Positions 8,782 to 30,418 of a DNA stretch of 32,000 bases are shown piece after piece. The notes under the pieces were generated by a model. That model ran no database searches, had not been told where the DNA came from, and saw only the letters and a list, made by a program, of their open reading frames with translations. Source of the DNA: Geotalea daltonii FRC-32 (lineage in GTDB: Bacteria; Desulfobacterota; Desulfuromonadia; Geobacterales; Geobacteraceae); the NCBI RefSeq assembly GCF_000022265.1, contig NC_011979.1:2220001-2252000 (forward strand), given 5' to 3'. A program made the translations under genes and the position numbers. Numbering within the stretch: the stretch's first letter is position 1; each line of letters starts with the position of its first letter.

Positions 8782-8867
8782 GCGGGACGCGCCTCCATTC
8801 TGTGAATAAGCCGAACGGCTTAATTTAGATTCACCCCGGCAAATTGTCAACTTGAAAGCAGTTTCCC

Positions 8868-8922
8868 CTTAACCATCTTTTAATTTGCCTGTAACACCAA
8901 TGCCACATAGTGCATTTAGGAT
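8868..8922 (+). promoter_or_regulatory. Pho-box-like array plus -10 for the porin gene
   Basis: CTTAACC ATCT TTTAATT TGCC TGTAACA CCAA TGCCACA, i.e. heptamers in 11-bp register, followed by 9 nt and TAGGAT (8917-8922). Confidence 0.5.
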
Positions 8923-10306: not shown

Positions 10307-10361
10307 TTTTACCAATCATTAACCTTTTTGTAACACCACCGGCATATTCCTTGGCTACCCT
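10307..10361 (+). promoter_or_regulatory. Pho-box-like array plus -10 for the Zn-ribbon ORF / pstS unit
   Basis: TTTTACC AATC ATTAACC TTTT TGTAACA CCAC CGGCATA, then 9 nt and TACCCT (10356-10361). Confidence 0.5.
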
Positions 10362-10394: not shown

Positions 10395-10589
10395 ATGCAA
10401 TTAACGCCAATGGGAGACTACTACGTCTGGTACTGTGAGTGGTGCGACTCGCGCAACATGACATTGTGGACAAGAATGGACAGCAAGGAAGTTTCATGTG
10501 GTTGCTGTCACCGCAGCTTTCCCCTTTCTGCCGAACCCCCATCGAAAAAAAGCACCGGGTTTGCCGCAGCTCAAGCCAACCTTCACTAA
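10395..10589 (+). CDS. small Cys-rich protein (64 aa), Zn-ribbon-like CxxC...CxCC
   Basis: AAGGAGAA RBS 5 nt upstream of the ATG. Cys pairs CEWC and CGCC are 20 residues apart. The ORF lies between the Pho-box-like promoter and pstS, and its stop is 15 nt before the pstS ATG. Confidence 0.5.
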   Translation: MQLTPMGDYYVWYCEWCDSRNMTLWTRMDSKEVSCGCCHRSFPLSAEPPSKKSTGFAAAQANLH

Positions 10590-10604
10590 GAGGAACATTT
10601 GCTG

Positions 10605-11636
10605 ATGATCAACAAAATGAAAAAATATATGGCAATACTGGCAGCGGTAGCCGTGACGCTTTCAGCCGGGCAGTCCTTTGCCGAGACGGTACTCAAGGGG
10701 GCAGGAGCAACCTTTCCGTATCCTCTGTACAGTAAGTGGTTCAGGGATTACACCCTGGTTGATCCGGTCGTGGCATTTACCTATGATGCCATCGGCAGCA
10801 GCGGGGGGGTAAAGCAAATCATGGCGCAGGCGGTGAATTTCGGCGCAAGCGACCGCTTTCTCACGGATGAGGAGCTGGCAGCCGCCCCGGGAAAACTCCT
10901 GCAGATCCCGACAGTAATGGGGGCAGTAGTGCTGAGTTACAATATCCCGGGCCTGCATTCGGAACTGAAACTTACCCCGGAGGCCGTCAGTGCCATTTAT
11001 CTGGGTGAAATCAGCCGCTGGAACGATTCCCGGCTGGTAGCTCTGAACAAAGAGCTGAAGACCATCGATCAGAAAATCATTGTTGTCCACCGCAGTGACG
11101 GCAGCGGCACCACCAGCATCTTTACCGATTACCTTTCCAGTGTCAGCAGCGAATGGGCCGGAAAGGTAGGCAAGGGTAACACCGTCCAATGGCCGGTCGG
11201 CATAGGGGGCAAGGGGAGCAAAGAGATGGTCGAGCACATCAGAACGGTGCCCTTTTCCATCGCCTACATGGAAAATGCTTATACCATGGTCAATAATCTC
11301 CCCACAGCCGTGCTGAAAAACAAGACCGGCCGCTTTGTCAACCCGACCATGCGCTCCATCAGGGCAGCGGCGGTTGATGCCATAAAACATGTGAAGAATG
11401 ATTACCGCGTATCACTGGTAAACCAGGCGGGCAAAGACGCCTATCCCATAGTCGGACTGACCTGGCTGCTTGTCTATCAGGAACAGAAAGACCCGGTGAA
11501 GGGAAAGGCGCTTGTGGAGTTTTTGAACTGGGAGTTGAAGAAGGCAGAAAAAATGACCTCGACGCTTTTTTACACGCCCCTTCCCGAAAAGCTGGGCAGT
11601 ATGGTAAACCAGGTGATCCGGAGCATCCGTTACTGA
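10605..11636 (+). CDS. pstS: phosphate ABC transporter substrate-binding protein PstS (copy 1)
   Basis: Signal peptide ...AVAVTLSAGQSFA, then GAGATFPYPLYSKWF, VVHRSDGSGTT and other typical PstS motifs. I preferred ATG 10605 (AAGAGGAA 9 nt upstream); the track start at 10599 is a TTG. Confidence 0.92.
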   Translation: MINKMKKYMAILAAVAVTLSAGQSFAETVLKGAGATFPYPLYSKWFRDYTLVDPVVAFTYDAIGSSGGVKQIMAQAVNFGASDRFLTDEELAAAPGKLLQIPTVMGAVVLSYNIPGLHSELKLTPEAVSAIYLGEISRWNDSRLVALNKELKTIDQKIIVVHRSDGSGTTSIFTDYLSSVSSEWAGKVGKGNTVQWPVGIGGKGSKEMVEHIRTVPFSIAYMENAYTMVNNLPTAVLKNKTGRFVNPTMRSIRAAAVDAIKHVKNDYRVSLVNQAGKDAYPIVGLTWLLVYQEQKDPVKGKALVEFLNWELKKAEKMTSTLFYTPLPEKLGSMVNQVIRSIRY

Positions 11637-11659
11637 AGGATATCCATTTTTTACCTAAT

Positions 11660-11694
11660 AAAAAAAGCCATTTCCTTGCGGAGATGGCTTTTTT
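11660..11694. terminator. bidirectional rho-independent terminator between convergent pstS and the GH3 gene
   Basis: An A-run, then AGCCATTTCC TTGC GGAGATGGCT (10 bp, one G-U pair on the plus transcript), then a T-run. Confidence 0.7.
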
Positions 11695-11712
11695 AATGCA
11701 ATTTCTTCGCGA

Positions 11713-13287
11713 TCAGCCCTGCTTGCTGAACTCGACCAGGCTCCTCACCAGTTCTCCCTCCAGCGTCGGGTCAATATGGGGAATCTTGCTTTGGCCGCCG
11801 AGCTTGCCCCGCACCTCTTTCGACCACCGATAGATCAGTCCTGCCTCAACCTGGATAACGACCGGCTCCTTGATCCTGCCTTGACTGCGAAAGGTGGCAT
11901 AGTCGTCGTTTTGGGCGGTCAATGCCTTGTCAAGCCGGTCTGCCAGGTTAATGCCGCTCACATTTCCATTCCCAACCGCCAATACCCAAAGGTGGCGTCT
12001 CTCCGCAATTTGAGGGCCGACCATGAATTCGCGGATGTCCGCTCCTGAATGGCCGTTAAGTCCGGCGACGGCAGCTTCAACTTCCCCTTGGGTCACCTTC
12101 TCTTCAAAGCGGTCGAGGAATTTGTCACGGCCGGTGAATTCAATGAACAAGGGATCGCGAGCAGTGAAGCGGATGGTATCGCCGATGTGGTAGCGCCAGA
12201 GGCCGGCACAGGTGGAAAGTATTACGGCATAGCGCCGGCCTGTTTCTATTTCTGCCAACGGTACTGCAGCCACATCGGCCGGCGGGATGCCGCGGTCATT
12301 CAGATGTTCGAAGGGAACAAATTCAAAAAAGGCACCGTAGTATGGGGCCAGCCGCATTTGGGGGTCGCCGTGCACCTGGAAGGCCATGAAGGCTTCCGAG
12401 GATGGCAGAACCTCCAGGAAGTGGGGAGGGTGTTCCTGGAACAGGTCGGCAAATTCGTGCCGGTAGGGGGAAATGCTGGTACCGCCATGAATGATCAGCT
12501 CCAGGTTTGGCAGCAAGCTTGGGAGCGGCGCCTTTCCCAGCTCTGTACAACGCTTCAATAGGAGCAGAATCCATGGGGGGACGCCGGAGATGGCCCTGAT
12601 GTTCCTGTCCCTGAGAAGCAGGTGGGCCAGGCGCTCCAGTTTCTCTTCCCAGGGGAGGGCGGCGGTGGCTGCGTCGGGTGCTATGAACGGATTAAGATAT
12701 AAAGGGGGATGGCTCAGGGTGATGGCGCTCATGTCGCCGCTTTTGATGCCATTCCCCATGTCATTCAGCTGGGTATTGCCGGCCATGTAGAGCAGTTTCC
12801 CACTGAAGAGGCGGCTGTCCCGGTTCTGATGCAGGTACATGGCCGTCAGGTCCAGGGCTGCCCGCCGGTTGGCGGCAAACATCTCCATGGAAAAGGGAAC
12901 ATACTTGCTCGGCGCGGTGGTGCCGGAGGTTTCGCAGAAAAAGGGAATCTTTCCCGGCCAGGTCTGGTCTTTCAGCAGCAGTTGCCGTCGCCCTTCCTGC
13001 ACCTGCCAGCCCTTGGCCAGATAGTCTTTGCGGAAATCGTCATAGGTTCTGATCGGGACCCTCTCCCGATAAAGGGGATAAGCCTGGGCAAAGGGAAGGC
13101 GTGTAAGTTCCGTAAACCCGTAGTCCATGCCGAAGCGGGCTTTACTGCCGCGAACAAGCAGGTGGGAAAATATTTTTTCCTGGGCTGCCACAGGATCGCG
13201 TTTGAGGAATTTCCTCGCCGCTATGGAGGCTCCGGATTTGAGAATTTTATCAAAAATGGGATTAGCAAGGTAGCTGGAAATTTCCAT
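11713..13287 (-). CDS. GH3-family acyl-acid amido synthetase-like adenylating enzyme (524 aa)
   Basis: The three GH3/ANL motifs are readable: ETSGTTAPSK (P-loop-like), LPSSEAF and LWRYHIGD. The ATG is 2 nt after the upstream gene's stop. Confidence 0.65.
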   Translation of the reverse strand: MEISSYLANPIFDKILKSGASIAARKFLKRDPVAAQEKIFSHLLVRGSKARFGMDYGFTELTRLPFAQAYPLYRERVPIRTYDDFRKDYLAKGWQVQEGRRQLLLKDQTWPGKIPFFCETSGTTAPSKYVPFSMEMFAANRRAALDLTAMYLHQNRDSRLFSGKLLYMAGNTQLNDMGNGIKSGDMSAITLSHPPLYLNPFIAPDAATAALPWEEKLERLAHLLLRDRNIRAISGVPPWILLLLKRCTELGKAPLPSLLPNLELIIHGGTSISPYRHEFADLFQEHPPHFLEVLPSSEAFMAFQVHGDPQMRLAPYYGAFFEFVPFEHLNDRGIPPADVAAVPLAEIETGRRYAVILSTCAGLWRYHIGDTIRFTARDPLFIEFTGRDKFLDRFEEKVTQGEVEAAVAGLNGHSGADIREFMVGPQIAERRHLWVLAVGNGNVSGINLADRLDKALTAQNDDYATFRSQGRIKEPVVIQVEAGLIYRWSKEVRGKLGGQSKIPHIDPTLEGELVRSLVEFSKQG

Positions 13288-13289
13288 AT

Positions 13290-14372
13290 CTAGACCACCG
13301 CAAACAGCACTGGCGCAACCAGCTTGTCATACCAGGCCTTTATGATGGGATTATAGTGCAAATGGTGAAATATGAGCGAGGCATGGGCGACGCTATCTCC
13401 TGCAGAACCGGAACAGACAACCCGTACCTTGCCCCGTGGGAACAGTTGTCTGCATGTATCGGGGGTACGCAGTGCTGCCATGGTTGGCGAAGTCGGGACT
13501 AGCAGGTCGCCTTCCTGTTCAGCCAGAAGTGTCAATGCCGGGCCGTTGAAAATGGGCCGATGGGGGAGGGGCCTGGAAAATCCTTTGAGCGCCAATACCC
13601 GCTGGTAGCCCCCGGCAGCCGAAGTCCTCTCAATGACATCCATGATTTTTTTCCTGATGGTCAGGTGCCGGCCGGATAACTGCCGGTTTTCCGCACCTGC
13701 TTCGAAGAGTGCCTTGAAACAGCGGCGGGCGCGGTCAATCTGCCTGTTTACGTCTTCTTCGGCGGATGGATCGGCCTTGAGAATCCGTTTCAGATTGATC
13801 TCAAGCATCCGGACGCCGCCTGATTTATCCCGTTCCGGCCTGATCAGGTCCTCGGTGCAGAGCACCGGGCTGGCCATCACTATGCCTTTGATGCCAAGTT
13901 TTTCGGGTTCCATCCATTCCTGGAGAAACCGTGCCAGAAGGCCCGAGCCGAAACTGACGCTGAAGATGACCGGCTTGTTGCCGTGGTTGTTTATATCTTC
14001 GATGAGATCGGCCAGCTGGGCAAAGAATAATTCTGACGTGAACCCGTTGCGCGGATAGTTCATATAATAAATGCTGCCGTATTGCCTGAAGAGATCCCGC
14101 TGGAATTCGACCAGCTCGGTGGCGTCGGGGACGAAACCGCCGATAACGATGGTGGGGGTGCTGCCATATCCCTTTTCCTTGAAGATTTGAGAACGATTGG
14201 CAAGGATGCTGGCAACGCTGTCCCTGAGCTGGAATTCCCGTCGCCGGTTCCGTGGGGTGAAGGGCTTTAGAGCCATGTGCCGGAGCAAACCGGTGGCAGT
14301 TGTCACCGCTCCCAGCAGGGCGGGATGCCTGGTGAAATTTTTCCGGACAAAGGGGATGACTGATCCGTTCAT
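13290..14372 (-). CDS. hypothetical protein, possible alpha/beta-hydrolase fold (360 aa)
   Basis: GGGAGGAA RBS. Nucleophile-elbow-like FSVSFGSG after a beta-strand (KPVIFSV). No other family signature recognised. Confidence 0.4.
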   Translation of the reverse strand: MNGSVIPFVRKNFTRHPALLGAVTTATGLLRHMALKPFTPRNRRREFQLRDSVASILANRSQIFKEKGYGSTPTIVIGGFVPDATELVEFQRDLFRQYGSIYYMNYPRNGFTSELFFAQLADLIEDINNHGNKPVIFSVSFGSGLLARFLQEWMEPEKLGIKGIVMASPVLCTEDLIRPERDKSGGVRMLEINLKRILKADPSAEEDVNRQIDRARRCFKALFEAGAENRQLSGRHLTIRKKIMDVIERTSAAGGYQRVLALKGFSRPLPHRPIFNGPALTLLAEQEGDLLVPTSPTMAALRTPDTCRQLFPRGKVRVVCSGSAGDSVAHASLIFHHLHYNPIIKAWYDKLVAPVLFAVV

Positions 14373-14441
14373 AATGTTCCTCCCTAGGGGTTTGCACCAT
14401 TATGAACGGGAATGGTTACGGACGTGTTGCGGTTCGGGAAA

Positions 14442-15716
14442 TTATCTGTGGAGAATGGAACTGCAGGAGACAGGTGCGTTGGAAGGTCTTGCCAGCAGGT
14501 ATCCCTGGCCGAAAGATACCCCCATTTGCGTAAGGAGGTCTAATTCCTCCTTGCGTTCTATGCCCTCGGCGATGACCTTTGCTCCTATCTTGCCGCAAAA
14601 GGTCACCAGCGCCTCCACCAAAGCCTGCCTGGTTGCCGAGGTGTCGATGTCACTGACCAGGAAACGGGCCAGCTTCACGTATTCCGGCTCCAGCTGGGCG
14701 AGCATTTTCAGGCCGGCATAACCGGAACCCAGGTCGTCTATGGCAATGGAATAGCCCTGTTCCCGGTAATAGGAAAGGACCCGGTTGAAGAGGCCATAAT
14801 CTTCGATCAGTGTCCGTTCCGTAAGCTCAAAGGTGATGTTCGATCGCTCGATGCCCAGTTCTTCAAGGAGTGCAGCGGTGACGCCCCGTTCGTGATCGTT
14901 GGCCTGGAGGAGGCTCGGGCAGACGTTGAGGAAAAGTCGTTCGGAGATGCCCAACTCCTTTGACCGGATCAGCGCATTCCTGCGGCAGAGCATTTCCAGC
15001 TGAAAGGTAAGTCCATGTTCAGCGGACTTGGCAAAGAGCAATTCCGGATCGGAAAAGGGGCTGGGTCTGCCGACGCGGCTCAGTGCTTCGTAGCCATGGA
15101 CGGTGCCTTCACCCAGGGAAAAGATGGGTTGAAAGACAGGAGTTATCAAGCCACCGGAGATAATATCTTCAATTTCCTGTCGCTCATGGAGATGTACCGG
15201 ACTTATGGACGTAGAGCCGCTGAACAGCTGCTGGAATGCGCGAAACAAGGTGTTGTCTGCGTTTTCCCCGCTATTATTGGCAAGAAATACACCGTAGATG
15301 GTGAACAGATCTTCTGCCCGTCTCTCGCTAAAGTTCCTGCTCATGTGCGGCAGGGAGAAATAACGGCACAGCTCGTGGCGGATGGTTGCCAGGTCCCCTT
15401 GAAAATCACTTTCACGGTAATCCCTGTCCGGCACGATGAGCAGGAAAAATTCTCCTTCGCTGGCTTTGTATCCCCCTTCGATGCGACCTGACAGCTTTCT
15501 GTCCATGGTTCTGATAAAAAGGGCAATGGACTTGCCAATCTTTGCATGAACCGGTTCTACGAATTTGAGGGCGACAATGGCCGCATGACCGCTTCTTTTA
15601 AGATGTTCCTTGAATTTCAGAAACAGGTAGCTGCAGTCGGAGAAGGAGTTTTCCAGCCTGGGAATGCGCCGCTGGTCCGGGGCAAGGTAAAGGGGTTTCA
15701 GTTGCAGATTGTTCAT
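14442..15716 (-). CDS. degenerate-GGDEF / EAL domain protein (predicted c-di-GMP phosphodiesterase)
   Basis: EAL-domain residues are present: YEALSR, FLNVCP, ELTE, DDLGSGYAGL, KLARF, EGIE, QGYL. The N-terminal half is GGDEF-like with SEGEF in place of GG(D/E)EF. I chose the start at 15716 (MNNLQL) because AAGGAGG lies 4 nt upstream; the track start at 15752 is an alternative. Confidence 0.85.
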   Translation of the reverse strand: MNNLQLKPLYLAPDQRRIPRLENSFSDCSYLFLKFKEHLKRSGHAAIVALKFVEPVHAKIGKSIALFIRTMDRKLSGRIEGGYKASEGEFFLLIVPDRDYRESDFQGDLATIRHELCRYFSLPHMSRNFSERRAEDLFTIYGVFLANNSGENADNTLFRAFQQLFSGSTSISPVHLHERQEIEDIISGGLITPVFQPIFSLGEGTVHGYEALSRVGRPSPFSDPELLFAKSAEHGLTFQLEMLCRRNALIRSKELGISERLFLNVCPSLLQANDHERGVTAALLEELGIERSNITFELTERTLIEDYGLFNRVLSYYREQGYSIAIDDLGSGYAGLKMLAQLEPEYVKLARFLVSDIDTSATRQALVEALVTFCGKIGAKVIAEGIERKEELDLLTQMGVSFGQGYLLARPSNAPVSCSSILHR

Positions 15717-15744
15717 GGGTCCTCCTTGGCTTTTGGCCAGGTCG

Positions 15745-15891
15745 TCAATCATTGAGCAGTGCAGCCAGTTCGCTGCCGTAGTGGCGGATGTTGGCTTCGC
15801 GGTAGGAATCCCGCAGCTCCCTCAGCTTGTCTATCTGCCGGTCCAGTTCCGAAAAATCCACACCAAGAAATCTGAAAATAAATGATTTCAC
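15745..15891 (-). CDS. 48-aa micro-ORF with GTG start
   Basis: Below the ORF-track size cut-off. The minus strand reads AAAAGGAGGAACT GTG AAA TCA ..., translating to MKSFIFRFLGVDFSELDRQIDKLRELRDSYREANIRHYGSELAALLND*. It fills the gap between the STAS gene and the EAL gene. Confidence 0.4.
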   Translation of the reverse strand: MKSFIFRFLGVDFSELDRQIDKLRELRDSYREANIRHYGSELAALLND

Positions 15892-15910
15892 AGTTCCTCC
15901 TTTTAAGGCC

Positions 15911-16225
15911 TCAGTCTTTGGCTGCTGCCGCCAGCAGAAAAATGCCGGTCATCTTGAAGAGCATGGTGTTGGTTGCGTTAACTTGCAACACTTGTATCTC
16001 TGCCCGCTTCTCCTCTTTGATACGTTTGAAGCAACGCAGAAGCAGGGCTATGCCCATGGAGTTTATCCGCCCTGCATTGCCGAAGTCGAATTTTACCAGT
16101 TGCTGGTTCACCTTTGCCGGCAGCGCCATGAGCTGCGTCTCGGCCTGGGCGTCTATATTTCCTGCCAGTGAGAAATAATTGCACAGCACCTTGGGGTGGG
16201 GCACGATCTTGAATGATGCATCCAT
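15911..16225 (-). CDS. STAS-domain protein (anti-sigma-factor-antagonist type, 104 aa)
   Basis: SpoIIAA-like length and layout. A candidate phospho-Ser lies in GRINSMGIALLL (canonical DSSGL position). Start at 16225 (MDASFKIV) behind GGAGGAGAAAG. Confidence 0.7.
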   Translation of the reverse strand: MDASFKIVPHPKVLCNYFSLAGNIDAQAETQLMALPAKVNQQLVKFDFGNAGRINSMGIALLLRCFKRIKEEKRAEIQVLQVNATNTMLFKMTGIFLLAAAAKD

Positions 16226-16248
16226 TGTTCTTTCTCCTCCTTTTTTGT

Positions 16249-17211
16249 TCAACCGGTGGTTGTTATGTGAAAGCCATGTATGGTTTCCGGCGGGATCTGT
16301 GATGACTTTTTAAGATGTCCGCCGATCAAAGTCTCTTTGCCCGGATTTACGCAAACATGGAAATGATCCAGGAAACGCCAGATGATGAAAAGTCCTCTTC
16401 CACCTGCATCATCTGCCGCTCCCATGTCCGCCGAATTTTTTGCCAGATATTCAAGCACCATGTCGGCGCCGAGGCTGCCCCAGCCGTCTTTAATTTCCAT
16501 GGCCAGGGTTTCCCCATCAAAGGCGAAGCGGAAAACTATACCCTCGTCCGGCAGAATCTGTCTTCTTTCCCCCTTGCGGAAGATTTTCATACCGTCATCA
16601 CTCTTGGGAGCGCCGTAGAAAGCATTTTCCAGCATTTCATCCGCCAGCAGCGCACCCTTTTGGCGGAGCATCTCGTATTCCATCGAGTCTCCGACGATGG
16701 AATCCTCAAGTGCCTTGATGATCTGTTCCTTCTCTTCCGAAAATGAGAGTTGGAATTCTTGAATTTCTGTCCCCCTTTTCACATATTGGCCAAGGTGCCA
16801 CTGCCTTTTTAAGATGAGATTACCAATGGCGACGGACAGGGGCTGATCTCCATCGCCGGTCGCTGCCTTTTCCTGCCGATTTTCTATGATCAGATGCCGC
16901 ACCTGGTCGAGCATGAACCTTTCCAGTGAATGAGGCGGCATTGATGCCGGCGCAAGGACCAGTATCTCCAGCCCTGGGAAGTAACCGCGCAGTTCTTCCA
17001 CCAGCTGTGGCCTTTTCCCCGGATAGAGAGCACTTGAGATCACTGCCAGTCCGGGATCTATCCGGGCAGAGGCAATTTCGCCCAGGGTTACTTTGAGAAA
17101 GCGGTCGGCTATGACGCTGATAACTTCGGGGACATGGAAGAAACAGCTGCTCATGGCCTCAGCATCGGCATTGTCGGCGAAAAGCGCGAGAATGGTTTTA
17201 TTCTGCTGCAT
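16249..17211 (-). CDS. GHKL-ATPase protein of the anti-sigma-factor Ser-kinase type with a ~160-aa N-terminal extension
   Basis: The C-terminal ~140 aa carry an N-box EMLENAFYG, a G1-like IKDGWGSLG and a G2-like GGRGLFIIWRFL, comparable to SpoIIAB/RsbW. The N-terminus (KTILALFADNAD ... LEILVLAP) is loosely receiver-like. The ATG overlaps the PP2C gene's end by 14 nt. Confidence 0.55.
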   Translation of the reverse strand: MQQNKTILALFADNADAEAMSSCFFHVPEVISVIADRFLKVTLGEIASARIDPGLAVISSALYPGKRPQLVEELRGYFPGLEILVLAPASMPPHSLERFMLDQVRHLIIENRQEKAATGDGDQPLSVAIGNLILKRQWHLGQYVKRGTEIQEFQLSFSEEKEQIIKALEDSIVGDSMEYEMLRQKGALLADEMLENAFYGAPKSDDGMKIFRKGERRQILPDEGIVFRFAFDGETLAMEIKDGWGSLGADMVLEYLAKNSADMGAADDAGGRGLFIIWRFLDHFHVCVNPGKETLIGGHLKKSSQIPPETIHGFHITTTG

Positions 17212-18415
17212 GGGGGGCTCCTTTAAATGTCGAAGAGGCGATGAAAATAGTCACGTCATCGGGGAACGATTCGCTGCCGGTGAAAAGCTCTGCCTCCCGC
17301 AGCAGTTTTCTTTTCAATACGCTGGGCTTTAAATGGATATTTTTCGCCAGGGATGCTGACAGGCGTTCATAACCGAATTCCTCGCCAGCCCGGTCGGTAC
17401 ATTCCACAATGCCGTCGGAATACAGCAGCATGGTGTCGCCATATTCGAAAGAGGTTAAACACTCTCCATAGCTGTTATTTTCTTCGAACCCCAGGGGAAA
17501 GCCGGAGACGCTGTCCAGCATCATGAGCAAACCTGAACCGGACCGGTGGATATAGGGAAAATTATGGCCGGCATTGGCAAAGGTAACCTTGCCGTTTTTG
17601 GTGTCTATGACGGCTATGAGGCAGGTCATGAGCAGTGTCTGGCGGGCGGTGGCCAGAATGGCATTGTTCATGCCGAACAATAATCCGGCAGGGGTGTCAA
17701 CCCCTTGGGAAATAAGGCAATTCAGGCTCGCTTTGGCCGCGGTAGTGACCATGCCCGATTGGACACCATGGCCGCTGACGTCGGCGACCAGCAAACCGAT
17801 TCTGTCTTTATCCAGCTGAAAATAATCGAAATAGTCTCCGCCTATTTCCGAGGAAGTGGTTATTTCTCCGCTGACGGTCAATCCCTCGAAGCTGAATTCG
17901 GAAACGGGAAGCAGTGCCTGCTGTATTTCACCAGCTTTTTTTACCTCACTCTGAATACGTTCGCCGAGACTTTCCAGTGTTTGAACCAGTGATGCCTGTG
18001 TCATAGAGATGGTCATCATCAGATCCGATACGGAAACCATCCCCGCGTACCGCTGTGCTTCAGTGATTACGAAGCAATCTGTCTCAAGGGACGGATCAAA
18101 GTCCAGTAATCGCGAAAGTGCCCCATTCACGTCCAGGTCCGCTTCCATTGTCATGCAGTCTTCTTCTTGAAGAACCATGATCGGTTTTTTGCCAAAGAGT
18201 TCCATGGCGAATGGACGCCCCAGATGGTTGTAAAAAAGAGCTCTCCGGCTGATAATGCCGGTAAATGTCCCTTCCGCTAATATGGGCAGGGCCAGCAGCG
18301 ATGGGTTTTTCTGGAAAATCTCCACTACCTCCGATACCGGTAATTGGGGGGAGATCGGTTCCTGTTTCTTGAGAATTTCACCTAACGTTGGAATGATATG
18401 CTGGCAGTATGTCAT
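17198..18415 (-). CDS. CBS-pair / PP2C (SpoIIE-RsbU type) serine phosphatase (405 aa)
   Basis: PP2C metal motifs GGDYFDYF, VADVSGHG, LLYSDGIVE and DDVTIF. The N-terminal ~130 aa are CBS-like (VSEVVEIFQKNPSLLALPILAEGTFTGIISRRALF). Confidence 0.85.
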   Translation of the reverse strand: MTYCQHIIPTLGEILKKQEPISPQLPVSEVVEIFQKNPSLLALPILAEGTFTGIISRRALFYNHLGRPFAMELFGKKPIMVLQEEDCMTMEADLDVNGALSRLLDFDPSLETDCFVITEAQRYAGMVSVSDLMMTISMTQASLVQTLESLGERIQSEVKKAGEIQQALLPVSEFSFEGLTVSGEITTSSEIGGDYFDYFQLDKDRIGLLVADVSGHGVQSGMVTTAAKASLNCLISQGVDTPAGLLFGMNNAILATARQTLLMTCLIAVIDTKNGKVTFANAGHNFPYIHRSGSGLLMMLDSVSGFPLGFEENNSYGECLTSFEYGDTMLLYSDGIVECTDRAGEEFGYERLSASLAKNIHLKPSVLKRKLLREAELFTGSESFPDDVTIFIASSTFKGAPHAAE

Positions 18416-18450
18416 CGTTCATCCGCCTCTCTCTCATTAACTTTGTACCT

Positions 18451-18483
18451 ATCATAGGAGCGAAGCGTTAAGATGATGTTACA
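18451..18483 (-). promoter_or_regulatory. Pho-box-like promoter in front of the PP2C operon
   Basis: The minus strand reads TGTAACA TCAT CTTAACG, then 9 nt, then TATGAT (18456-18451). The geometry is the same as at the porin, Zn-ribbon/pstS and phoB promoters. Confidence 0.4.
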
Positions 18484-18540
18484 GGCGGATAAATGTTCAA
18501 TGAAGGATGATAATTTCTGATTGGAAAGACTGGAACAAAG

Positions 18541-18566
18541 AAAGGGCACACTGTCGTGTGCCCTTT
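18541..18566 (-). terminator. rho-independent terminator after pstS copy 2
   Basis: AAAGGGCACAC / GTGTGCCCTTT, an 11-bp stem with a 4-nt loop. On the minus transcript it is followed by CUUUGUU. Confidence 0.7.
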
Positions 18567-18590: not shown

Positions 18591-19619
18591 TTATTTGATG
18601 GTCTTGATGGTCTTTTCCACCATCTTTGCCACATTGGCCGGAAGGGGCGCATAGAGAATCTTCTCTGCCATCTTCTGGCCGTGCTTCAGTTCCCAGTTGA
18701 GGAACTCGACCAGCTTCTTCCCTTTGGCCTTGTCCTTCTGATCCTGGTAAACGAGCAACCAGGTGAAGCCGACAACGGGGTAGGAGTCTTTGCCCGGCTG
18801 GTTGACCAGGGAGACGCGGTAATCGGCGGGCATGGATTTGGCGGCGCCGGCAGCGGCGGCGCTGGTGGATTTGATGGTCGGCTCGACGAAGACGCCGCTC
18901 TTGTTCTTGAGGCTTGCATAGGGCAGCTTGTTTTCCACGGCATAGGCCAGTTCAACGTAGCCGATGGTGTACTGGGTGGTTTTGACCTGTCCGGCGACCC
19001 CTTCGTTACCCTTGCCGCCAAGACCTACCGGCCATTTTACCGAGCTTCCCTTGCCCACTTTGCCGGACCATTCCTGGCTTACAGACGAGAGGTAGTCGGT
19101 GAAGATGCTGGTGGTGCCGCTGCCGTCGGAGCGGTGAACAACAATGATCGGTTGGTTGGGGAGATTGACGCCCGGGTTGTCATTGGAGATCTTCGGATCG
19201 TTCCATTTGGTGATCTTGCCCAGGAAGATATCGGCCACATCTTCGGAGGAGAGCTTCAAGCCTTTTGCTACGCCGGGAATGTTGTAGGTGACGACCACCG
19301 CACCCATTACCGTTGGGATGTGGAGCAGCTTACCTGGAGCGGCCTTCAGGTCGCTATCGCTCAAAAATTTGTCGGAAGCGCCGAAATCGACGGTCTGGGC
19401 GGTGATCTGTTTGATGCCGCCGCCGCTGCCGATGGACTGGTAGTTGAATTTGACCGACGGATCGACCTTGGCATATTCGGTGAACCATTTTGAATAGAGG
19501 GGGTAGGGGAAGGTCGCCCCGGCGCCGTTGATGAGTGTTTCGGCCGAAGCCGCCCCGCCAGTGGCGGTCAGCGCCAGGAGCAGCGCTGCTGCAAGTTTTT
19601 TGCGAAAAAATACCGACAT
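18591..19619 (-). CDS. pstS: phosphate ABC transporter substrate-binding protein PstS (copy 2)
   Basis: Signal peptide ...TATGGAASA, then GAGATFPYPLYSKWF and VVHRSDGSGTT. Collinear with copy 1 along its full length. Confidence 0.92.
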   Translation of the reverse strand: MSVFFRKKLAAALLLALTATGGAASAETLINGAGATFPYPLYSKWFTEYAKVDPSVKFNYQSIGSGGGIKQITAQTVDFGASDKFLSDSDLKAAPGKLLHIPTVMGAVVVTYNIPGVAKGLKLSSEDVADIFLGKITKWNDPKISNDNPGVNLPNQPIIVVHRSDGSGTTSIFTDYLSSVSQEWSGKVGKGSSVKWPVGLGGKGNEGVAGQVKTTQYTIGYVELAYAVENKLPYASLKNKSGVFVEPTIKSTSAAAAGAAKSMPADYRVSLVNQPGKDSYPVVGFTWLLVYQDQKDKAKGKKLVEFLNWELKHGQKMAEKILYAPLPANVAKMVEKTIKTIK

Positions 19620-19717: not shown

Positions 19718-20398
19718 CTATTCTTCCTCGATCTTATAGCCGAAGCCACGCACGGTCTTGATCATGTCCCCGGCAGACCCCAGCTTGGTTCGCAGTCGCG
19801 TCACATGGGTGTCGACGGTTCTGCTGTCCCCCACATAATTGTAGCCCCAGACGTTCTGCAGCAGGATGTCTCTGCTTTGAACCCTGCCGGCCCGCTCCGC
19901 CAGATCCAGAAGCAGTTTGTACTCTATAGTGGTGAGGAGGATCTCTTTATCGGCAACGGTTACCAGATGACGTTCCGTGTCGATGGAGACCGGCCCGACA
20001 CTGAAGACCTTTTTCCGTGGCTGTTCCGGTAGTGTCCGACGCAGCAGTGCCTTTACCCGCAACATGAGTTCCCTTGTGGAGAAGGGTTTGACAATATAAT
20101 CATCGGCACCCACTTCGAAACCGACGACACGGTCTATCTCCTCCCCCTTGGCGGTCAGCATGATAACCGGTATGGAGGCGGTTTTCCCATTGCCCTTCAG
20201 GATTTTGCAGATCTCTGTGCCTGCCATGCCGGGAAGCATCAGGTCAAGCAGAATAAGGTCGGGCGGATTCTTGCGCGCTGCTTCGAGGCCGACAAGCCCA
20301 TCGAGGGCAATAAGCGGCCGGTGCCCTTCCTTTTCCAGGTTGAAGGCAATCAGTTCCGCCAGGTCCCTTTCATCCTCGATTACCAGTATCGTATGCAT
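19718..20398 (-). CDS. phoB: OmpR/PhoB-family response regulator
   Basis: Receiver (ILVIEDE, LLDLMLPGMAG, IVKPF) plus a winged-helix C-terminal domain (VDTHVTRLRTKL). It sits directly upstream of pstS behind a Pho-box-like site. No histidine kinase gene is adjacent. Confidence 0.8.
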   Translation of the reverse strand: MHTILVIEDERDLAELIAFNLEKEGHRPLIALDGLVGLEAARKNPPDLILLDLMLPGMAGTEICKILKGNGKTASIPVIMLTAKGEEIDRVVGFEVGADDYIVKPFSTRELMLRVKALLRRTLPEQPRKKVFSVGPVSIDTERHLVTVADKEILLTTIEYKLLLDLAERAGRVQSRDILLQNVWGYNYVGDSRTVDTHVTRLRTKLGSAGDMIKTVRGFGYKIEEE

Positions 20399-20842: not shown

Positions 20843-21025
20843 TTATTTCGGGCAGTCCTGCCGCCAGAGGCAGCTTTCCTGACCACATTCCGAAGCCTTG
20901 CCGCTGGCAAAGCAGGGGTCGTTTCCTTCGGTATCCTGGATGGTCTTGATCAGATCGGTCTTATTCAACTTGCCGGCTTTGATGCCGCGCTGTTTGGCTA
21001 TTTCCTTGACTTCATCAACTTTCAT
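20843..21025 (-). CDS. SAP/Rho_N-like small protein with a C-terminal 4-Cys tail (60 aa)
   Basis: Start at 21025 behind AGGAGGAAAAGCG. MKVDEVKEIAKQRGIKAGKLNKTDLIKTIQ is a SAP-type helix-extended loop-helix; the tail is CFASGKASECGQESCLWRQDC. Confidence 0.6.
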   Translation of the reverse strand: MKVDEVKEIAKQRGIKAGKLNKTDLIKTIQDTEGNDPCFASGKASECGQESCLWRQDCPK

Positions 21026-21213
21026 CGCTTTTCCTCCTGGGTAAATTAACTTGAGTTCGACAATAATTGCTAATTCTACCAGGAGAAAATCCCTTTGCAA
21101 CCGGTGATGAAATCTTTTGTTTATTCGTTACGGCATGTTGCAAAGGTTTTTTTGTTGTGGACGGGGATAAATATGGCATGGTAGATAGGTAGGCAATACA
21201 ATGGAGGGCTTAA

Positions 21214-24172: not shown

Positions 24173-25408
24173 TTATTTGATCTTCCAGAGAACGGCATGC
24201 CTTGCGATTGACCCCTGGCTGAGTTGGCTGCGACCCACCGCCTGCCCATGATCGTTGATGTCCACGGCGAAGCTGTTCCCGCCCAGTGTGCCCAAGTCTG
24301 TCATTACGCCTTTCTGCCAAACGAAGGCCTTTGTCGTGCCTAAAGTTCCCGTACTGTAACCTACCACCTGTCCCTTATCGTTCACATGGAACGCTCCGCT
24401 TTCACCTCCGTCAAGAGTCCCAAGGTCGGTCATGACCCCATCATTCCAGATGAAGCCATGCTGGGAACCCGTTGAGGATGCGCTGTCGCCTATGACCTGC
24501 CCCTTATCGTTGATGCCGGAAGCAGTACTCCAATTTCCACCCAGCGTACCAAGGTCCGTCATCTTTCCTTTCTGCCAGATGAAGGCATGTCTGGCCCCTG
24601 TAGACGTATAACTATAGCCGACCACCTGGCCTTTTTTGTTGATGGCATAAGCGTAGCTGGATCCCCCGCCGAGGGTTCCCAGGTCGGTCATGACGCCGTC
24701 CTGCCAGATGAAGGCATGCTCACCTCCCGAGGATAGTGTGCTAGAGCCTATGACCTGCCCCTTATCGTTGACGTCGAGAGCAATGCTCTTATTTCCACCC
24801 AGTGTTCCCAAGTCTTTCATCTTCCCTTTCTGCCAGATGAAGGCATGAGCGGTCCCTGCAGAAGTGCCACTATAGCCAACCACCTGGCCTTTCTTGTTGA
24901 TGGCCAAACCGTAGCTATACCCCCCACCCAGATTTCCCAGGCCTGTCATGGCGCCGTCCTGCCATATGAAAGCATCCACGGCACCTGAGGATGTCAGGCT
25001 TGTGCCCACCACCTGTCCCTTGTCATTGTTGGCCAGTGGCTCACAATAATCTCCACCCAGCGTCCCCAGGTCGGTCATTACGCCGTTCTGCCAGATAAAG
25101 CAATGAGACTCCCCCAAAGATGTACTGCTTTGACCAAACACCTGCCCCTTTTCGTTGATGCCGCCGGCAGCACTCGGATTGCCGCCCAGTGTTCCGAGGT
25201 CCGTAATCGTTATCCCTTTAATTTTGCTCGAAGCAGCACCTTCTTCACTGCCATCCCCATTACAGCAAAGGGCGTTGGAAGGCAGCAAAGAAAGCAGTGC
25301 TAAAGGTAAAAACGCTTGTATCACCAAGTTTTTAAACATGCCCTTCTTCTTTGGATGCCCGGAGAATTTGAAAACCGAGTGATGTCCCTCTTCCTTTGAG
25401 ACCACCAT
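24173..25408 (-). CDS. HAF-repeat protein, paralog 1 (411 aa)
   Basis: Eight ~43-aa repeats of the form G.SxAxxINxKGQVVGxSxxxxGxxHAFIWQxGxMTDLGTLGG (HAF family, TIGR03803-like). Start at 25408 (MVVSKEE) behind AAAAGGAGGAAAAAGAC. An N-terminal hydrophobic segment is present. Confidence 0.8.
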   Translation of the reverse strand: MVVSKEEGHHSVFKFSGHPKKKGMFKNLVIQAFLPLALLSLLPSNALCCNGDGSEEGAASSKIKGITITDLGTLGGNPSAAGGINEKGQVFGQSSTSLGESHCFIWQNGVMTDLGTLGGDYCEPLANNDKGQVVGTSLTSSGAVDAFIWQDGAMTGLGNLGGGYSYGLAINKKGQVVGYSGTSAGTAHAFIWQKGKMKDLGTLGGNKSIALDVNDKGQVIGSSTLSSGGEHAFIWQDGVMTDLGTLGGGSSYAYAINKKGQVVGYSYTSTGARHAFIWQKGKMTDLGTLGGNWSTASGINDKGQVIGDSASSTGSQHGFIWNDGVMTDLGTLDGGESGAFHVNDKGQVVGYSTGTLGTTKAFVWQKGVMTDLGTLGGNSFAVDINDHGQAVGRSQLSQGSIARHAVLWKIK

Positions 25409-25908
25409 GTCTTTTTCCTCCTTTTTGATGTTTGTCCCATCCTTTTGGGCCGCGCTTTGTTTATAGAAAAACGGTACCAAAATTAGCATGCACTGCCACT
25501 ACCCACTGCGTGCATTATTAGAAATTTCTACATGTAGCAGGTGCAGGGGTCACTGTCGCCACTGGACTATTGTTCGCGGACTGCCCATGGATCGGGAAAA
25601 GGAGGGGGAAAAGCTGGTAGTATGTGACAGGTTCTATTAAAGAAAATAATAGTGCATCCCCTGAATTTTAATCAGGGGATGCATCGGGGATCAAGGCAGG
25701 GAATATCAGACAATGGTGTGGTGGATATTCTTGCCCTGACTATGTAAATGACCGTCTCGGCTACTTTGGTGGCGTGGTCGGTGATGCACTCCAGGCACTT
25801 GGACATGTAGCTCATCTTATGCGTGGCTGATTGTCTTGGGGGCCGAGAGCATGAAAGTGAAAGCTCCAGCTGGATCTGCTCGTTCAGGTAGTCGACCAAC
25901 TGAATCAT
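25409..25908 (-). repeat. segmental duplicate of 28498-~29000 (HAF leader/promoter region, phoU terminator, phoU 3' end)
   Basis: Blocks shared with 28498-29000 include the RBS region CTTTTTCCTCCTTTT, GCACTGCCAC, CTGCGTGCAT.ATTAGAAA, GTAGCAGGTGCAG.GGTCACTG, CCCATGGATC, and an identical 29-nt hairpin GCATCCCCTGAATTTTAATCAGGGGATGC (25654-25682 versus 28741-28769). Confidence 0.8.
25706..25908 (-). pseudogene. phoU 3'-terminal relic (about the last 66 codons, frameshifted)
   Basis: Track ORF 25672-25908 reads QLVDYLNEQIQLEL...MSYMSKCLECITDHATKVAETVIYIV, against PhoU QVVDDLNEQIQREL...INYMSKCLERIADHATNISEMVIFMV. The PhoU-like end QGKNIHHTIV* (stop at 25706-25708) lies in a different frame from the rest, and there is no N-terminal two-thirds. 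Confidence 0.8.
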
Positions 25909-25914
25909 TTTTAT

Positions 25915-25966
25915 GGGAAAAGCAGTGCCAAGCTTGCAGTTACAACTCTGCTGCTAGCCTGGCACT
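25915..25966 (-). terminator. probable terminator after HAF paralog 2
   Basis: The minus transcript has AGUGCCAGGCU ... AGCUUGGCACU (11 bp with one G-U, 21-nt loop) followed by GCUUUUCCC. A related sequence follows paralog 1. Confidence 0.45.
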
Positions 25967-25992
25967 ATTGGTCCCTCTGTTTTCCCTGCGTC

Positions 25993-27201
25993 TTACTTAA
26001 TGCTCCAGAGAACGGCATGCCTCGCTAACGACCCCGGGCTGGTCTGGCTGTGACCAACCGCCTGTCCATGATTGTTAATGCTCACGGCCCAGCTGTCCCC
26101 GCTCAGCGTGCCCAAGTCGGTCATTACGCCGTTCTGCCAAATGAAGGCCTTGGTCGAGCCGTAACTTGCCGTACTGTAGCCCACCACCTGTCCCTTATCG
26201 TTCACATCGAACGCTCCGATTAGATCTCCGGCAAGCGTCCCCAGGTCGGTCATGACGCCGTTCTTCCAGATGAAGCTATGCTGGGAACCCGTGGAGGATG
26301 CGCTATCGCCTATGACCTGCCCCTTTTCATTGATGCCGCTAGCAATGCTCCAACTTCCACCCAACGTCCCCAGATCGGTCATCACCCCCTTCTGCCAGAT
26401 AAAGGCATGCATGGCTCCTGTAGTATTACTATAGCCAACCACCTGTCCGTTCTTGTTGATGGCATAAGCGATGCTAGATCTCCCTCCGAGTGTTCCCAGG
26501 TCGGTCATGACGCCGTCCTGCCAGATGAAGGCCTGCTCACCTCCCGATGAGGATGATCTATAGCCTATGACCTGCCCCTTATCATTGATGCCGACAGCAG
26601 TGCTCCAATCTCCACCTAGCGTTCCAAGGTCGGTCATCACTCCGTTCTGCCAGATGAATGCATGCATGGCCGCTGTAGAAGTCCAACTATAGCCAACCAC
26701 CTGTCCGTTCTTGTTGATGGCAGAAGCGTGGCTATATCCTCCCCCGAGACTTCCGAGGTCGGTCATAACGCCGTCCTGCCATATGAAAGCAAGCGGGACC
26801 CACGAGGATGTCACGCTTGTGCCCACGACCTGTCCTTTGTCATTGATAGCGACTGGCTCACAATAATCCCCACCCAGCGTCCCCAAGTCGGTCATTACCC
26901 CGTTCTCCCAAATGAAGCAATGAGCCGCCCCCGAAGACGTACTACTTTGACCCATCACCTGCCCCTTTTCGTTGATGCCGCCGGCTGAACTCCGATCTCC
27001 GCCGAGTGTTCCAAGATCAGTAATAGTTATCCCCTTAATCCCGCTCGAAGCAGCAACTTCATCATTGCCATCCCCAGCCCAGCAAACAGCGTTAAAAGAC
27101 AGAAAAGAAAGTAGTGCTAAAATTCTGAACGCTCTCTTGATCTTTGAGCATGCGGAGAACATTAATGCTGAGCCATTTCCCTCTTCCTTTGGGTAGTTCA
27201 T
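25993..27201 (-). CDS. HAF-repeat protein, paralog 2 (402 aa)
   Basis: Same eight-repeat architecture. AAGGAGGAAACAAC RBS. Only 60 nt downstream of paralog 3. Confidence 0.8.
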   Translation of the reverse strand: MNYPKEEGNGSALMFSACSKIKRAFRILALLSFLSFNAVCWAGDGNDEVAASSGIKGITITDLGTLGGDRSSAGGINEKGQVMGQSSTSSGAAHCFIWENGVMTDLGTLGGDYCEPVAINDKGQVVGTSVTSSWVPLAFIWQDGVMTDLGSLGGGYSHASAINKNGQVVGYSWTSTAAMHAFIWQNGVMTDLGTLGGDWSTAVGINDKGQVIGYRSSSSGGEQAFIWQDGVMTDLGTLGGRSSIAYAINKNGQVVGYSNTTGAMHAFIWQKGVMTDLGTLGGSWSIASGINEKGQVIGDSASSTGSQHSFIWKNGVMTDLGTLAGDLIGAFDVNDKGQVVGYSTASYGSTKAFIWQNGVMTDLGTLSGDSWAVSINNHGQAVGHSQTSPGSLARHAVLWSIK

Positions 27202-27261
27202 GTTGTTTCCTCCTTGTAGGTGTTACCTTTACGTGGGTAGCTTCGTTCGATGATGCTGCGG

Positions 27262-29469: not shown

Positions 29470-29485
29470 TTAAATCCTCTTTAAA

Positions 29486-29640
29486 GTTCGATGTTCGAAG
29501 TTCGACGTTCGAAGTTGATTAAATAAAGTTCGATGTTCGCAGTTCGACGTTCGAAGTTGTAAATCTTTGAATTTCAGAGGTTCGATATTTGGGGGTAGCC
29601 TTAACCTCGAACTTCTAACCCCGAACGTCGAACGTCGAAC
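29486..29640. repeat. inverted arrays of a GTTCGAN heptamer in the pstB-phoU intergenic region
   Basis: Plus strand: GTTCGAT GTTCGAA GTTCGAC GTTCGAA GTTGATT (29486-29520); GTTCGAT GTTCGCA GTTCGAC GTTCGAA GTTGTAA (29528-29562); a single GTTCGAT (29580-29586). Minus strand: GTTCGAC GTTCGAC GTTCGGG GTTAGAA GTTCGAG GTTAAGG (29640-29599). Confidence 0.85.
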
Positions 29641-29645
29641 GTTTT

Positions 29646-30404: not shown

Positions 30405-30418
30405 TGAAACCTCATTTA

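Follow-up and report, generated by a model that had tools for sequence, protein, structure and literature searches.

We describe a cluster of seven genes on the minus strand of Geotalea daltonii FRC-32, located between positions 11713 and 18415 of a 32,000-nucleotide (nt) stretch of contig NC_011979.1 (positions 2,220,001 to 2,252,000), which we refer to as the window. The cluster probably consists of two adjacent PhoB-type phosphate-starvation units in a Geotalea Pho island, one combining a partner switch with an EAL enzyme predicted to degrade cyclic di-GMP (c-di-GMP), and the other a gene pair resembling olsI and olsH. The first unit would comprise five genes, for a CBS-PP2C phosphatase, a protein joining a pseudo-receiver to an RsbW-like kinase domain, a STAS protein, a 48-amino-acid (aa) protein, and a dedicated EAL enzyme. 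The second would comprise two genes, for an OlsI-like hydrolase and an OlsH-like GH3 enzyme, and has its own predicted Pho-box promoter. The units appear to be separable and joined by shared regulation rather than to form one seven-gene machine, and the phosphate-regulon setting explains why these genes sit together. An earlier note on this DNA, which had read the seven genes as one operon in which the STAS protein may gate the EAL enzyme, missed both this setting and the known OlsH/OlsI-type pathway for the GH3 pair.

Layout of the cluster

The genes, in order from the phosphatase gene, are as follows.

17198-18415, minus strand: PP2C gene, 405 aa, CBS-PP2C (SpoIIE/RsbU-type) serine phosphatase
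16249-17211, minus strand: kinase-like gene, 320 aa, pseudo-receiver and RsbW/SpoIIAB-like Bergerat-fold (GHKL) protein
15911-16225, minus strand: STAS gene, 104 aa, start ATG at 16225, ribosome-binding site (RBS) AAGGAGG
15745-15891, minus strand: small open reading frame (micro-ORF), 48 aa, start GTG at 15891, RBS AAAGGAGG
14442-15716, minus strand: EAL phosphodiesterase gene, 424 aa, start ATG at 15716, RBS AAGGAGG
13290-14372, minus strand: alpha/beta-hydrolase gene, 360 aa, OlsI-like candidate O-acyltransferase
11713-13287, minus strand: gene for a GH3-family adenylating enzyme, 524 aa, predicted OlsH-like N-acyl-amino-acid (lyso-aminolipid) synthetase

A mechanical ORF list overextends the STAS gene to a TTG at 16252 and the EAL gene to 15752. 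With the RBS-supported starts of STAS, micro-ORF, and EAL, the co-directional arrangement and every junction length given in the earlier note were reproduced exactly: a 14-nt overlap between PP2C and the kinase-like gene, then gaps of 23, 19, 28, 69, and 2 nt. Two intrinsic terminators flank the cluster, the first of which had already been recognized.

11660-11694, both strands: bidirectional intrinsic terminator, hairpin AAAAAAGCCATCTCC-GCAA-GGAAATGGCTTTTTTT followed by a T-run, common to the GH3 gene and the convergent second pstS (pstS2)
about 18536-18566, minus strand: intrinsic terminator of the upstream pstS, hairpin AAAGGGCACAC-GACA-GTGTGCCCTTT, then CTTTGTT

The predicted terminator at 18536-18566 ends the upstream pstS gene and insulates P1, the promoter of the cluster described below. 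A terminator scan gave no match in any of the cluster's junctions, and weak 5-bp terminator-like matches inside the genes were in modest excess (17, versus 11.2 +/- 3.2 in shuffled sequences). Given that no terminator lies between the two units, read-through from P1 into the second is likely. Searching the entire window with Rfam turned up neither a riboswitch nor any other RNA family, and therefore no c-di-GMP or cyclic GMP-AMP (cGAMP) riboswitch is involved here.

Short junctions and the lack of a terminator between genes would also suit one operon encoding a single seven-gene system, in which the EAL enzyme is gated by the STAS protein, with the hydrolase and GH3 enzyme as further outputs or ligand-making parts. 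We regard this as improbable, on account of a predicted internal promoter, the distribution of the hydrolase-GH3 pair among genomes, and the function predicted for the pair, each of which is taken up where the evidence is given.

Predicted Pho-box-like promoters upstream of the phosphatase and hydrolase genes

Two sites in the cluster have phased repeats in place of a -35 element about 10 bp before a -10 hexamer.

18451-18484, minus strand: promoter P1, upstream of PP2C, CTGTAAC-ATCA-TCTTAAC (18467-18484), 10-nt spacer, -10 TATGAT (18451-18456)
14399-14432, minus strand: predicted internal promoter P2, in the 69-nt EAL-hydrolase gap, CCGCAAC-ACGT-CCGTAAC (14415-14432), 10-nt spacer, -10 CATAAT (14399-14404)

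The first coincides with a promoter-like site previously seen at 18451-18483, which is real and turns out to be Pho-box-like. The second, which would serve the hydrolase-GH3 pair, speaks against the claim of one operon. The P1/P2 motif is common to the promoters of the pstS, porin, and phoB-like genes, and we predict from these sequences that both are PhoB-type promoters. In E. coli, the Pho box of PhoB-dependent promoters stands in for the -35 element. A generic sigma-70 scan flagged neither P1 nor P2; P1 was missed because a Pho-box-like repeat occupies its -35 position, and such a scan is of little use for PhoB-type promoters.

The surroundings of the cluster are those of a phosphate regulon.

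to 10205, plus strand: phosphate-selective porin O/P gene (Pfam Porin_O_P, 3.6e-27)
about 8858-8906, plus strand: four 11-bp-phased Pho-box-like repeats before the porin gene
10319-10334, plus strand: Pho-box-like repeat before the second pstS
10599-11636, plus strand: second pstS (PBP_like_2; NCBIfam PstS, 340 bits, cutoff 205)
18591-19619, minus strand: pstS (NCBIfam PstS, 420 bits, cutoff 205)
19718-20398, minus strand: phoB-like response regulator gene (best NCBIfam model PhoB TIGR02154, 243 bits, cutoff 296)
28798-31971, minus strand: phoU-pstB-pstA-pstC of the Pho island

Direct 7-bp CTGTAAC-like repeats with an 11-bp phase lie upstream of each of these units (porin, both pstS genes, phoB-like, and phoU-pstBAC) as well as upstream of PP2C. 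The heptamer CTGTAAC itself occurs seven times in the window, versus 1.25 expected, and four of the seven copies precede, in the same orientation, the porin, PP2C, pstS, and phoB-like genes. We scored the best two-repeat match (out of 14) in the 160 nt upstream of genes in the window and in 39 related loci, of which 15 contain pstS, phoB-like, or porin genes. Scores of at least 11 were distributed as follows.

pstS: 9 of 10
porin: 5 of 7
phoB-like: 6 of 12
PP2C: 13 of 39
hydrolase: 5 of 10 (8 of 10 at a score of at least 10)
kinase-like, STAS, micro-ORF, EAL, and GH3 combined: 0 of 117 (6 of 117 at a score of at least 10)

By comparison, 1.9% of random 256-nt segments score 11 or more. The location of the boxes is likewise retained (-50 to -77 relative to the start codon), with a -10-like hexamer about 10 nt further on. 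The motif is found at -60 to -77 before PP2C in many orthologous loci; ahead of the hydrolase gene it occupies -50 to -69 in 10 of 10 loci analyzed, whatever the upstream gene is (EAL, micro-ORF, porin, or other). We find this retention of position amid diverged intergenic sequence persuasive, despite the kinship of the loci. In every arrangement, the hydrolase gene is immediately preceded by a conserved Pho box and -10 element, which argues against a single operon.

Conservation of gene order

A pattern scan with one genome per species gave 39 loci, nearly all from Geobacteraceae. The genes for PP2C, the kinase-like protein, and STAS adjoin one another in all of them as far as the contigs allow, with PP2C present in 38 of the 38 related loci whose contig extends upstream of the kinase-like gene. 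A metagenome scan seeded on the N-terminal domain of the EAL protein added 10 loci, nine of them with upstream sequence, and in all nine the STAS and small-protein genes directly precede the EAL gene, with the kinase-like and PP2C genes ahead of them where the contig allows. In the loci found, the window-type EAL subfamily is exclusive to the module. Chance juxtaposition was rejected, since the five-gene order, with the window-type EAL following the small protein, recurs in 15 species-level loci in addition to the nine metagenome contigs.

Linkage of the module to c-di-GMP enzymes in genomes, which the earlier note had drawn from this one cluster, is robust. PAS-GGDEF-EAL proteins follow STAS in five distant loci (L020, L021, L022, L026, and L031), and an EAL-CBS-GGDEF protein takes the place of the window-type EAL in two (L034 and L035). 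Altogether, about 22 of the 39 loci have a c-di-GMP enzyme alongside the module, with three architectures represented. In L035 (Geobacter argillaceus, 11427-13349), and likewise in L034, the module and small protein are followed by the EAL-CBS-GGDEF protein, such that CBS domains are present on both the output enzyme and the phosphatase.

The hydrolase-GH3 pair behaves differently from the five genes. The seven-gene order recurs in four of the 39 loci (L001, L003, L005, and L025) besides the window, and in L016 the pair comes immediately after the small protein, no EAL gene intervening; both observations speak for a single seven-gene system. Elsewhere, the pair follows pstS and a porin gene (L006), lies 5 kb away (L014), or is encoded on the other strand, close to a porin gene (L027 and L033). 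The pair is missing from seven loci that carry the same EAL gene and extend about 9.6 kb downstream of STAS, that of Geotalea sp. SG265 (L002) among them. The earlier note had named internal promoters and lack of conserved gene order as grounds for giving up its proposal; with a predicted internal promoter and an order found in so few loci, the seven-gene unit fails on both, and the five-gene unit survives.

Two further observations concern individual loci. In Methylovulum psychrotolerans (L039, 7808-11787; the same in L038), a 938-aa protein combines PilJ, PAS, SpoIIE, and GHKL domains, and after it comes a STAS domain joined to a PhnD-like phosphonate-binding-protein domain (PF12974, 5.6e-20); no pho genes are found near this distant module. 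In the draft assembly of Geotalea toluenoxydans (L001, NZ_BBCJ01000034.1), tblastn matches for PP2C, EAL, GH3, and pstS2 are fragmented and the hydrolase is 69% identical by tblastn, versus 99% for the deposited protein, which suggests frameshift errors in the draft.

The phosphatase, kinase-like, and STAS proteins

The assignment of the first three proteins to a phosphatase/GHKL/STAS trio was borne out by Pfam, by an AlphaFold model of the kinase-like protein compared with Foldseek, and by a STAS family profile. PP2C matches Pfam SpoIIE at 2.3e-39 (gathering score 25 bits), as expected of a PP2C/SpoIIE phosphatase, and carries an N-terminal CBS domain (Pfam, 1.9e-7, likewise over its gathering score), next to which we infer a second CBS repeat from the sequence. 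Its nearest NCBIfam models are RssB (Pseudomonas), SiaA, and SpoIIE, each far under cutoff.

The kinase-like protein belongs to a family of about 245 full-length, well-conserved proteins from Geobacteraceae and Desulfuromonadales; its top database match, from Geotalea toluenoxydans, is 98% identical. In an AlphaFold model built on 68 homologues (pLDDT 88.5), Foldseek resolved two domains. The C-terminal domain has the Bergerat fold, matching RsbW (6m37_C, 1.1e-4) and SpoIIAB (1th8_A, 2.5e-4), both at probability 1.00, as well as UsfX. This kinship was recovered by fold comparison alone, as a PDB sequence-profile search with the family gave marginal matches only (best E 0.013) and none to RsbW or SpoIIAB. 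Invariant in the family are the N-box-like and G-box-like motifs LLADE-x-x-EN, DGWG, and GGRGLFIIW, with residues E192/E195/N196, D242-G-W-G, and G270-G-R-G-L-F. The modeled structure places the 320-aa protein in the RsbW/SpoIIAB-type GHKL fold, and we presume that it is the kinase and binding partner of the STAS protein.

The N-terminal domain, previously described as loosely receiver-like, has a CheY-like receiver fold with Foldseek matches to TadZ/CpaE and to RcsB receivers. Its phospho-acceptor position is occupied by Ser59 in place of Asp, nearly invariantly in the 68 sequences, and the conserved Lys after beta-5 is missing, for which reasons we call it a pseudo-receiver; a canonical receiver with a phospho-acceptor Asp, as in LvrC of Leptospira, was not found in this protein. 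The best whole-chain Foldseek match is nevertheless LvrC (9qih, 5.9e-8).

This match raises the question of whether the 320-aa protein acts as a genuine anti-sigma factor that sequesters a sigma factor encoded elsewhere until STAS and PP2C release the latter in phosphate starvation, with the EAL enzyme simply co-expressed. LvrC is a proposed anti-sigma factor whose sigma partner is not encoded nearby (PMC13269768), RsbW, SpoIIAB, and UsfX all bind sigma factors, and the module lacks a following c-di-GMP enzyme in L011, L023, L030, and L037. We nonetheless consider an anti-sigma function unlikely. As the earlier note had observed, there is no sigma factor gene in or near the cluster: no sigma-factor domain was found among the ORFs scanned in the 32-kb window, and none was found among the flanking genes examined in related loci. 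In addition, the EAL subfamily was not encountered apart from the module, divergent loci have c-di-GMP enzymes of three architectures following the module, and modules of this kind have established non-sigma outputs (PMC8457831). Neither a cognate sigma factor nor an identified target was found for the switch, and it is gene linkage that points to the EAL enzyme as its target.

In the STAS protein, the motif RINS56MG, with its Ser, is invariant among 23 aligned orthologues and, on our reading of the alignment (NSMG versus DSSG), Ser56 is at the position of SpoIIAA Ser58. A single domain with a conserved phosphorylatable Ser is what is expected of a STAS antagonist. The profile of the 23 orthologues matches MlaB (7.9e-6), SpoIIAA (5.3e-5), RsbV (2.8e-4), and TM1442, in a range to 3e-4.

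The slightly better match to MlaB than to SpoIIAA could mean that the STAS protein is an accessory subunit of an ATP-binding cassette (ABC) ATPase, such as PstB or a lipid transporter, and tunes phosphate uptake or lipid trafficking rather than c-di-GMP. The location among pst genes and beside lipid-remodeling genes fits this idea, as does the Methylovulum homologue in which a STAS domain is fused to a phosphonate-binding-protein-like domain. The difference in score is small, however, and the STAS gene invariably adjoins the PP2C and kinase-like genes, not an ABC ATPase gene. MlaB systems are not known to come with a PP2C phosphatase and an RsbW-like kinase, and together with an invariant Ser56 at the SpoIIAA/RsbV phosphorylation position, this makes an MlaB-like role very improbable.

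The 48-amino-acid protein and the EAL enzyme

The micro-ORF directly follows STAS in at least 22 species-level genome loci and in nine metagenome loci. Its orthologues, of 45-60 aa, share the motif LD-x-QI-x-KLR-x-LRDSYR-x-AN-x3-YGE-x-LA-x-LLDD, and comparison with seven of them gave ratios of nonsynonymous to synonymous change (pN/pS) of 0.12-0.39. A spurious ORF was rejected on these grounds. The micro-ORF is a genuine conserved gene under purifying selection, and its product, which matches no Pfam or NCBIfam family, is probably part of the core module. We consider this protein the most original element of the system, and one easily overlooked by standard annotation.

The EAL domain (Pfam, 2.2e-46) has BlrP1 and a Vibrio EAL protein as its best solved relatives, both at about 3e-27. 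With both relatives, of which BlrP1 is an active enzyme, alignment recovers every one of the canonical positions EAL-x-R, N, E-x-TE, DD, K, EG-x-E, and QG, in agreement with the earlier view that the catalytic residues are intact, and the residue set fits a catalytically competent c-di-GMP phosphodiesterase. The N-terminal domain of about 180 aa is conserved within, and specific to, the family. This domain had been read as a degenerate GGDEF domain (SEGEF), which could not be demonstrated: it aligned in register with GGDEF domains from related loci in hhalign but not significantly (probability 0.9%, E 0.06), Pfam found no GGDEF domain in the window protein or in 14 orthologues (15 members in all), and a PDB sequence-profile search with the domain gave no match.

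An OlsI/OlsH-like pair

The GH3 enzyme is no unexplained oddity of the cluster: it is a homologue of OlsH, which together with OlsI makes ornithine lipid (PMC12493201). In Singulisphaera acidiphila, the GH3-like OlsH forms N-acyl-ornithine from a fatty acid and ATP (JBC 2025, PMC12493201), and an alpha/beta-hydrolase from the same operon, OlsI (Sinac_1601), then attaches the second acyl chain to give ornithine lipid (PMC12493201). The NCBIfam model for OlsH (NF052613, "lyso-ornithine lipid synthetase OlsH") derives from that 2025 study (PMC12493201). Geobacterales are among the orders with OlsH homologues according to a 2026 review, which also reports PhoB- or Pho-box-controlled ornithine-lipid formation in Sinorhizobium, Serratia, and Vibrio (PMC12971839).

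The window GH3 protein matches this model (OlsH_GH3_orni) at E 1.7e-105 over residues 16-522 (model positions 22-512 of 524), with 353.6 bits that do not reach the equivalog cutoff of 620; its amino-acid substrate or head group may therefore differ, and we file it as OlsH-like, not as OlsH. Pfam GH3 (7.3e-21), GH3_M (8.9e-16), and GH3_C (2e-9) all score above gathering, covering the N, M, and C domains, and the sequence shows ETSGTT and YHIGD. Plant GH3 structures match at only 1e-8.

For the hydrolase, there was no Pfam or NCBIfam match, and a PDB sequence-profile search with its family found nothing. Foldseek matched its model to alpha/beta-hydrolase esterases and haloperoxidases (8e-9), and the sequence has a nucleophile elbow, G/S-V-S140-F-G, and an invariant D-x-V-x-HASL-x-x-HH motif. 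The family is small, with 114 relatives in a full HMMER sweep of 1.84 billion representatives, and its remote members are from Opitutaceae, Planctomycetota, and Fibrobacteria. An onward search from the Planctomycetota member returned no protein named as Singulisphaera.

The hydrolase and GH3 genes are adjacent in 10 of 10 loci analyzed (with a 2-nt gap in the window), as expected for an OlsH-type enzyme and a partner of alpha/beta-hydrolase fold. The hydrolase is also 26% identical (E 2e-14) to one from Fibrobacteria, whose gene overlaps an OlsH-like GH3 gene by 4 nt and stands without any partner-switching genes. That the pair occurs on its own, and is independently explained by an OlsH/OlsI-like lipid pathway (PMC12493201), again argues against one seven-gene system. 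The pair is best called OlsI/OlsH-like, the hydrolase being an OlsI-like candidate by fold and gene pairing.

One planctomycete hydrolase homologue does not adjoin a GH3 gene. In L040 (1551-6230) and L041, both metagenome-assembled genomes of Planctomycetota, a remote homologue lies beside genes for a GT4 glycosyltransferase, a PAP2 phosphatase, a metallophosphoesterase, and a 5'-nucleotidase, with no GH3 gene. This looks like another phosphate-sparing lipid-remodeling neighborhood.

Other genes of the Pho island

Four observations concern genes outside the cluster. For the porin O/P gene, the likely start is an ATG near 8988 (RBS AAAGGAGGAG), not the GTG at 8910 given in the mechanical ORF list. 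Between the Pho-box-like repeat at 10319-10334 and the second pstS is a 64-aa ORF (10395-10589, plus strand) with two CxxC pairs and a faint Pfam zinc-finger match, which could encode a small zinc-ribbon protein of the Pho regulon. Three tandem paralogues of 438, 402, and 411 aa (24173-28497, minus strand) lie between phoU-pstBAC and the phoB-like gene; all match Pfam DUF3466, the one scanned in NCBIfam has HAF repeats (TIGR02913, 3.7e-109), and two further CTGTAAC copies are within these genes. Finally, an 85-aa ORF with a SAP/Rho_N-like motif (3.7e-5) is found at 20843-21100 (minus strand), upstream of the phoB-like gene.

A model for the two units

We propose that, at low phosphate, a PhoB-like regulator would bind the Pho boxes and turn on P1 and P2. 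In the first unit, the Bergerat-fold protein would phosphorylate STAS on Ser56 and PP2C would strip the phosphate, with the balance set through the CBS pair of PP2C by an adenylate or other phospho-ligand signal. The phosphorylation state of STAS could then decide whether the EAL enzyme is free or is bound by STAS, the kinase-like protein, or the 48-aa protein; the latter and the N-terminal domain of the EAL protein are candidate docking elements. In this way, c-di-GMP breakdown in phosphate starvation would be gated by a second, metabolic signal. In the second unit, the GH3 enzyme may adenylate a fatty acid and join it to an amino acid (ornithine or another), after which the hydrolase-fold enzyme would add a second acyl chain to give a phosphorus-free aminolipid, sparing phosphate.

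Several points weigh against this reading of the two units. All functional statements are based on comparison of sequence, fold, and neighborhood. The Pho boxes were assigned by similarity to the E. coli consensus and by enrichment, only about half of the PP2C upstream regions reach at least 10 of 14, and the Fisher p-values for the motif against the internal genes (2.6e-9 for PP2C and 1e-6 for the hydrolase) overstate independence because the loci are phylogenetically related. The module is followed instead by hybrid histidine kinases in L011 and L037, by a histidine kinase in L023, and by a methyl-accepting chemotaxis protein in L030. The EAL enzyme has Ala where BlrP1 has Asp two residues after the catalytic Lys (K-x-D). 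The kinase activity of the 320-aa protein is assumed. In the second unit, the GH3 score lies under the equivalog cutoff and the hydrolase model is of only moderate quality (pLDDT 63). Finally, the profile searches proposed in the earlier note succeeded for SpoIIE, EAL, and the three GH3 domains and did not detect GGDEF, with the kinase-like and STAS proteins falling under the gathering scores of HATPase_c_2 (1.4e-4, 22.3 bits; gathering score 27.4) and STAS_2 (1.1e-3). These last two scores are offset by confirmation from other sources, the model and Foldseek for the kinase-like protein and the family profile for STAS.

More tentatively, a PhoB-induced partner switch may directly gate a dedicated EAL enzyme in Geobacteraceae, joining phosphate starvation to an energy or adenylate signal, with the 48-aa protein as adaptor or decoy. 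If true, this would be the first partner switch shown to control c-di-GMP degradation rather than synthesis. We found no described Geobacter system of this kind in the literature searched. Subsurface relatives of Geobacter are phosphate-limited according to a passage of PMC2996986 that cites field work. If the model holds, phosphate limitation would be coupled to a post-translationally gated drop in c-di-GMP, affecting attachment and biofilm behavior, traits that matter for bioremediation and electrode biofilms. The membrane would likewise shift to phosphorus-free aminolipids by a GH3-type route so far shown only in one planctomycete.

Comparison with known systems

The classical three-protein switches of Bacillus, RsbU-RsbV-RsbW and SpoIIE-SpoIIAA-SpoIIAB, have the same three protein types as the first unit and a Ser at the same STAS position. 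They differ in that the window has no cognate sigma gene; similarity to them is very low, with the kinase-like and STAS proteins under Pfam gathering scores. LvrC (9qih), in which a receiver is joined to an anti-sigma output domain (2026 paper, PMC13269768), has a receiver-fold N-terminal domain and an RsbW-like Bergerat domain in common with the 320-aa protein. Its receiver is canonical and phosphorylated on Asp53, whereas the window family has a nearly invariant Ser and no Lys after beta-5.

Closer in output are the STAS switches HptB-HsbR-HsbA/HsbD of P. aeruginosa, BgrSTUWV/BgrR of S. meliloti, and SiaABC/SiaD, which control diguanylate cyclases (PMC8457831). They share with the window module a PP2C phosphatase, a serine kinase, and a STAS or STAS-like protein that can be phosphorylated, and their linked output is likewise a c-di-GMP enzyme instead of a sigma factor. 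They act on diguanylate cyclases, whereas the linked enzyme of the window is an EAL phosphodiesterase, and the phosphatase input is a CBS pair in the window rather than a receiver or transmembrane sensor. The pseudo-receiver on the kinase, the extra 48-aa protein, and the apparent Pho control also set the window module apart.

Induction of an EAL enzyme through the Pho regulon has parallels. AcgA of Vibrio cholerae is reportedly such an enzyme, induced in phosphate starvation and lowering c-di-GMP. In Pseudomonas fluorescens, PhoB induces the EAL protein RapA and c-di-GMP falls (PMC3032553). RapA is described as controlled by transcription only, in contrast to the window EAL enzyme, which is embedded in a predicted post-translational switch.

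The second unit resembles OlsH/OlsI of Singulisphaera acidiphila (PMC12493201) in having a GH3-like enzyme, here aligned end to end with the OlsH model, beside an alpha/beta-hydrolase, and a phosphorus-free lipid product would fit phosphate starvation, as for other ornithine-lipid synthases (PMC12971839). In the window, however, the order is hydrolase then GH3, no OlsG methyltransferase gene lies between them, a Pho box is ahead, and the head-group amino acid may differ in view of the GH3 score (353.6 versus 620 bits). Overall, the signaling part of the cluster varies known partner-switching and Pho/c-di-GMP themes, and most of the GH3/hydrolase part can be accounted for by a pathway and a type of regulation that are already known.

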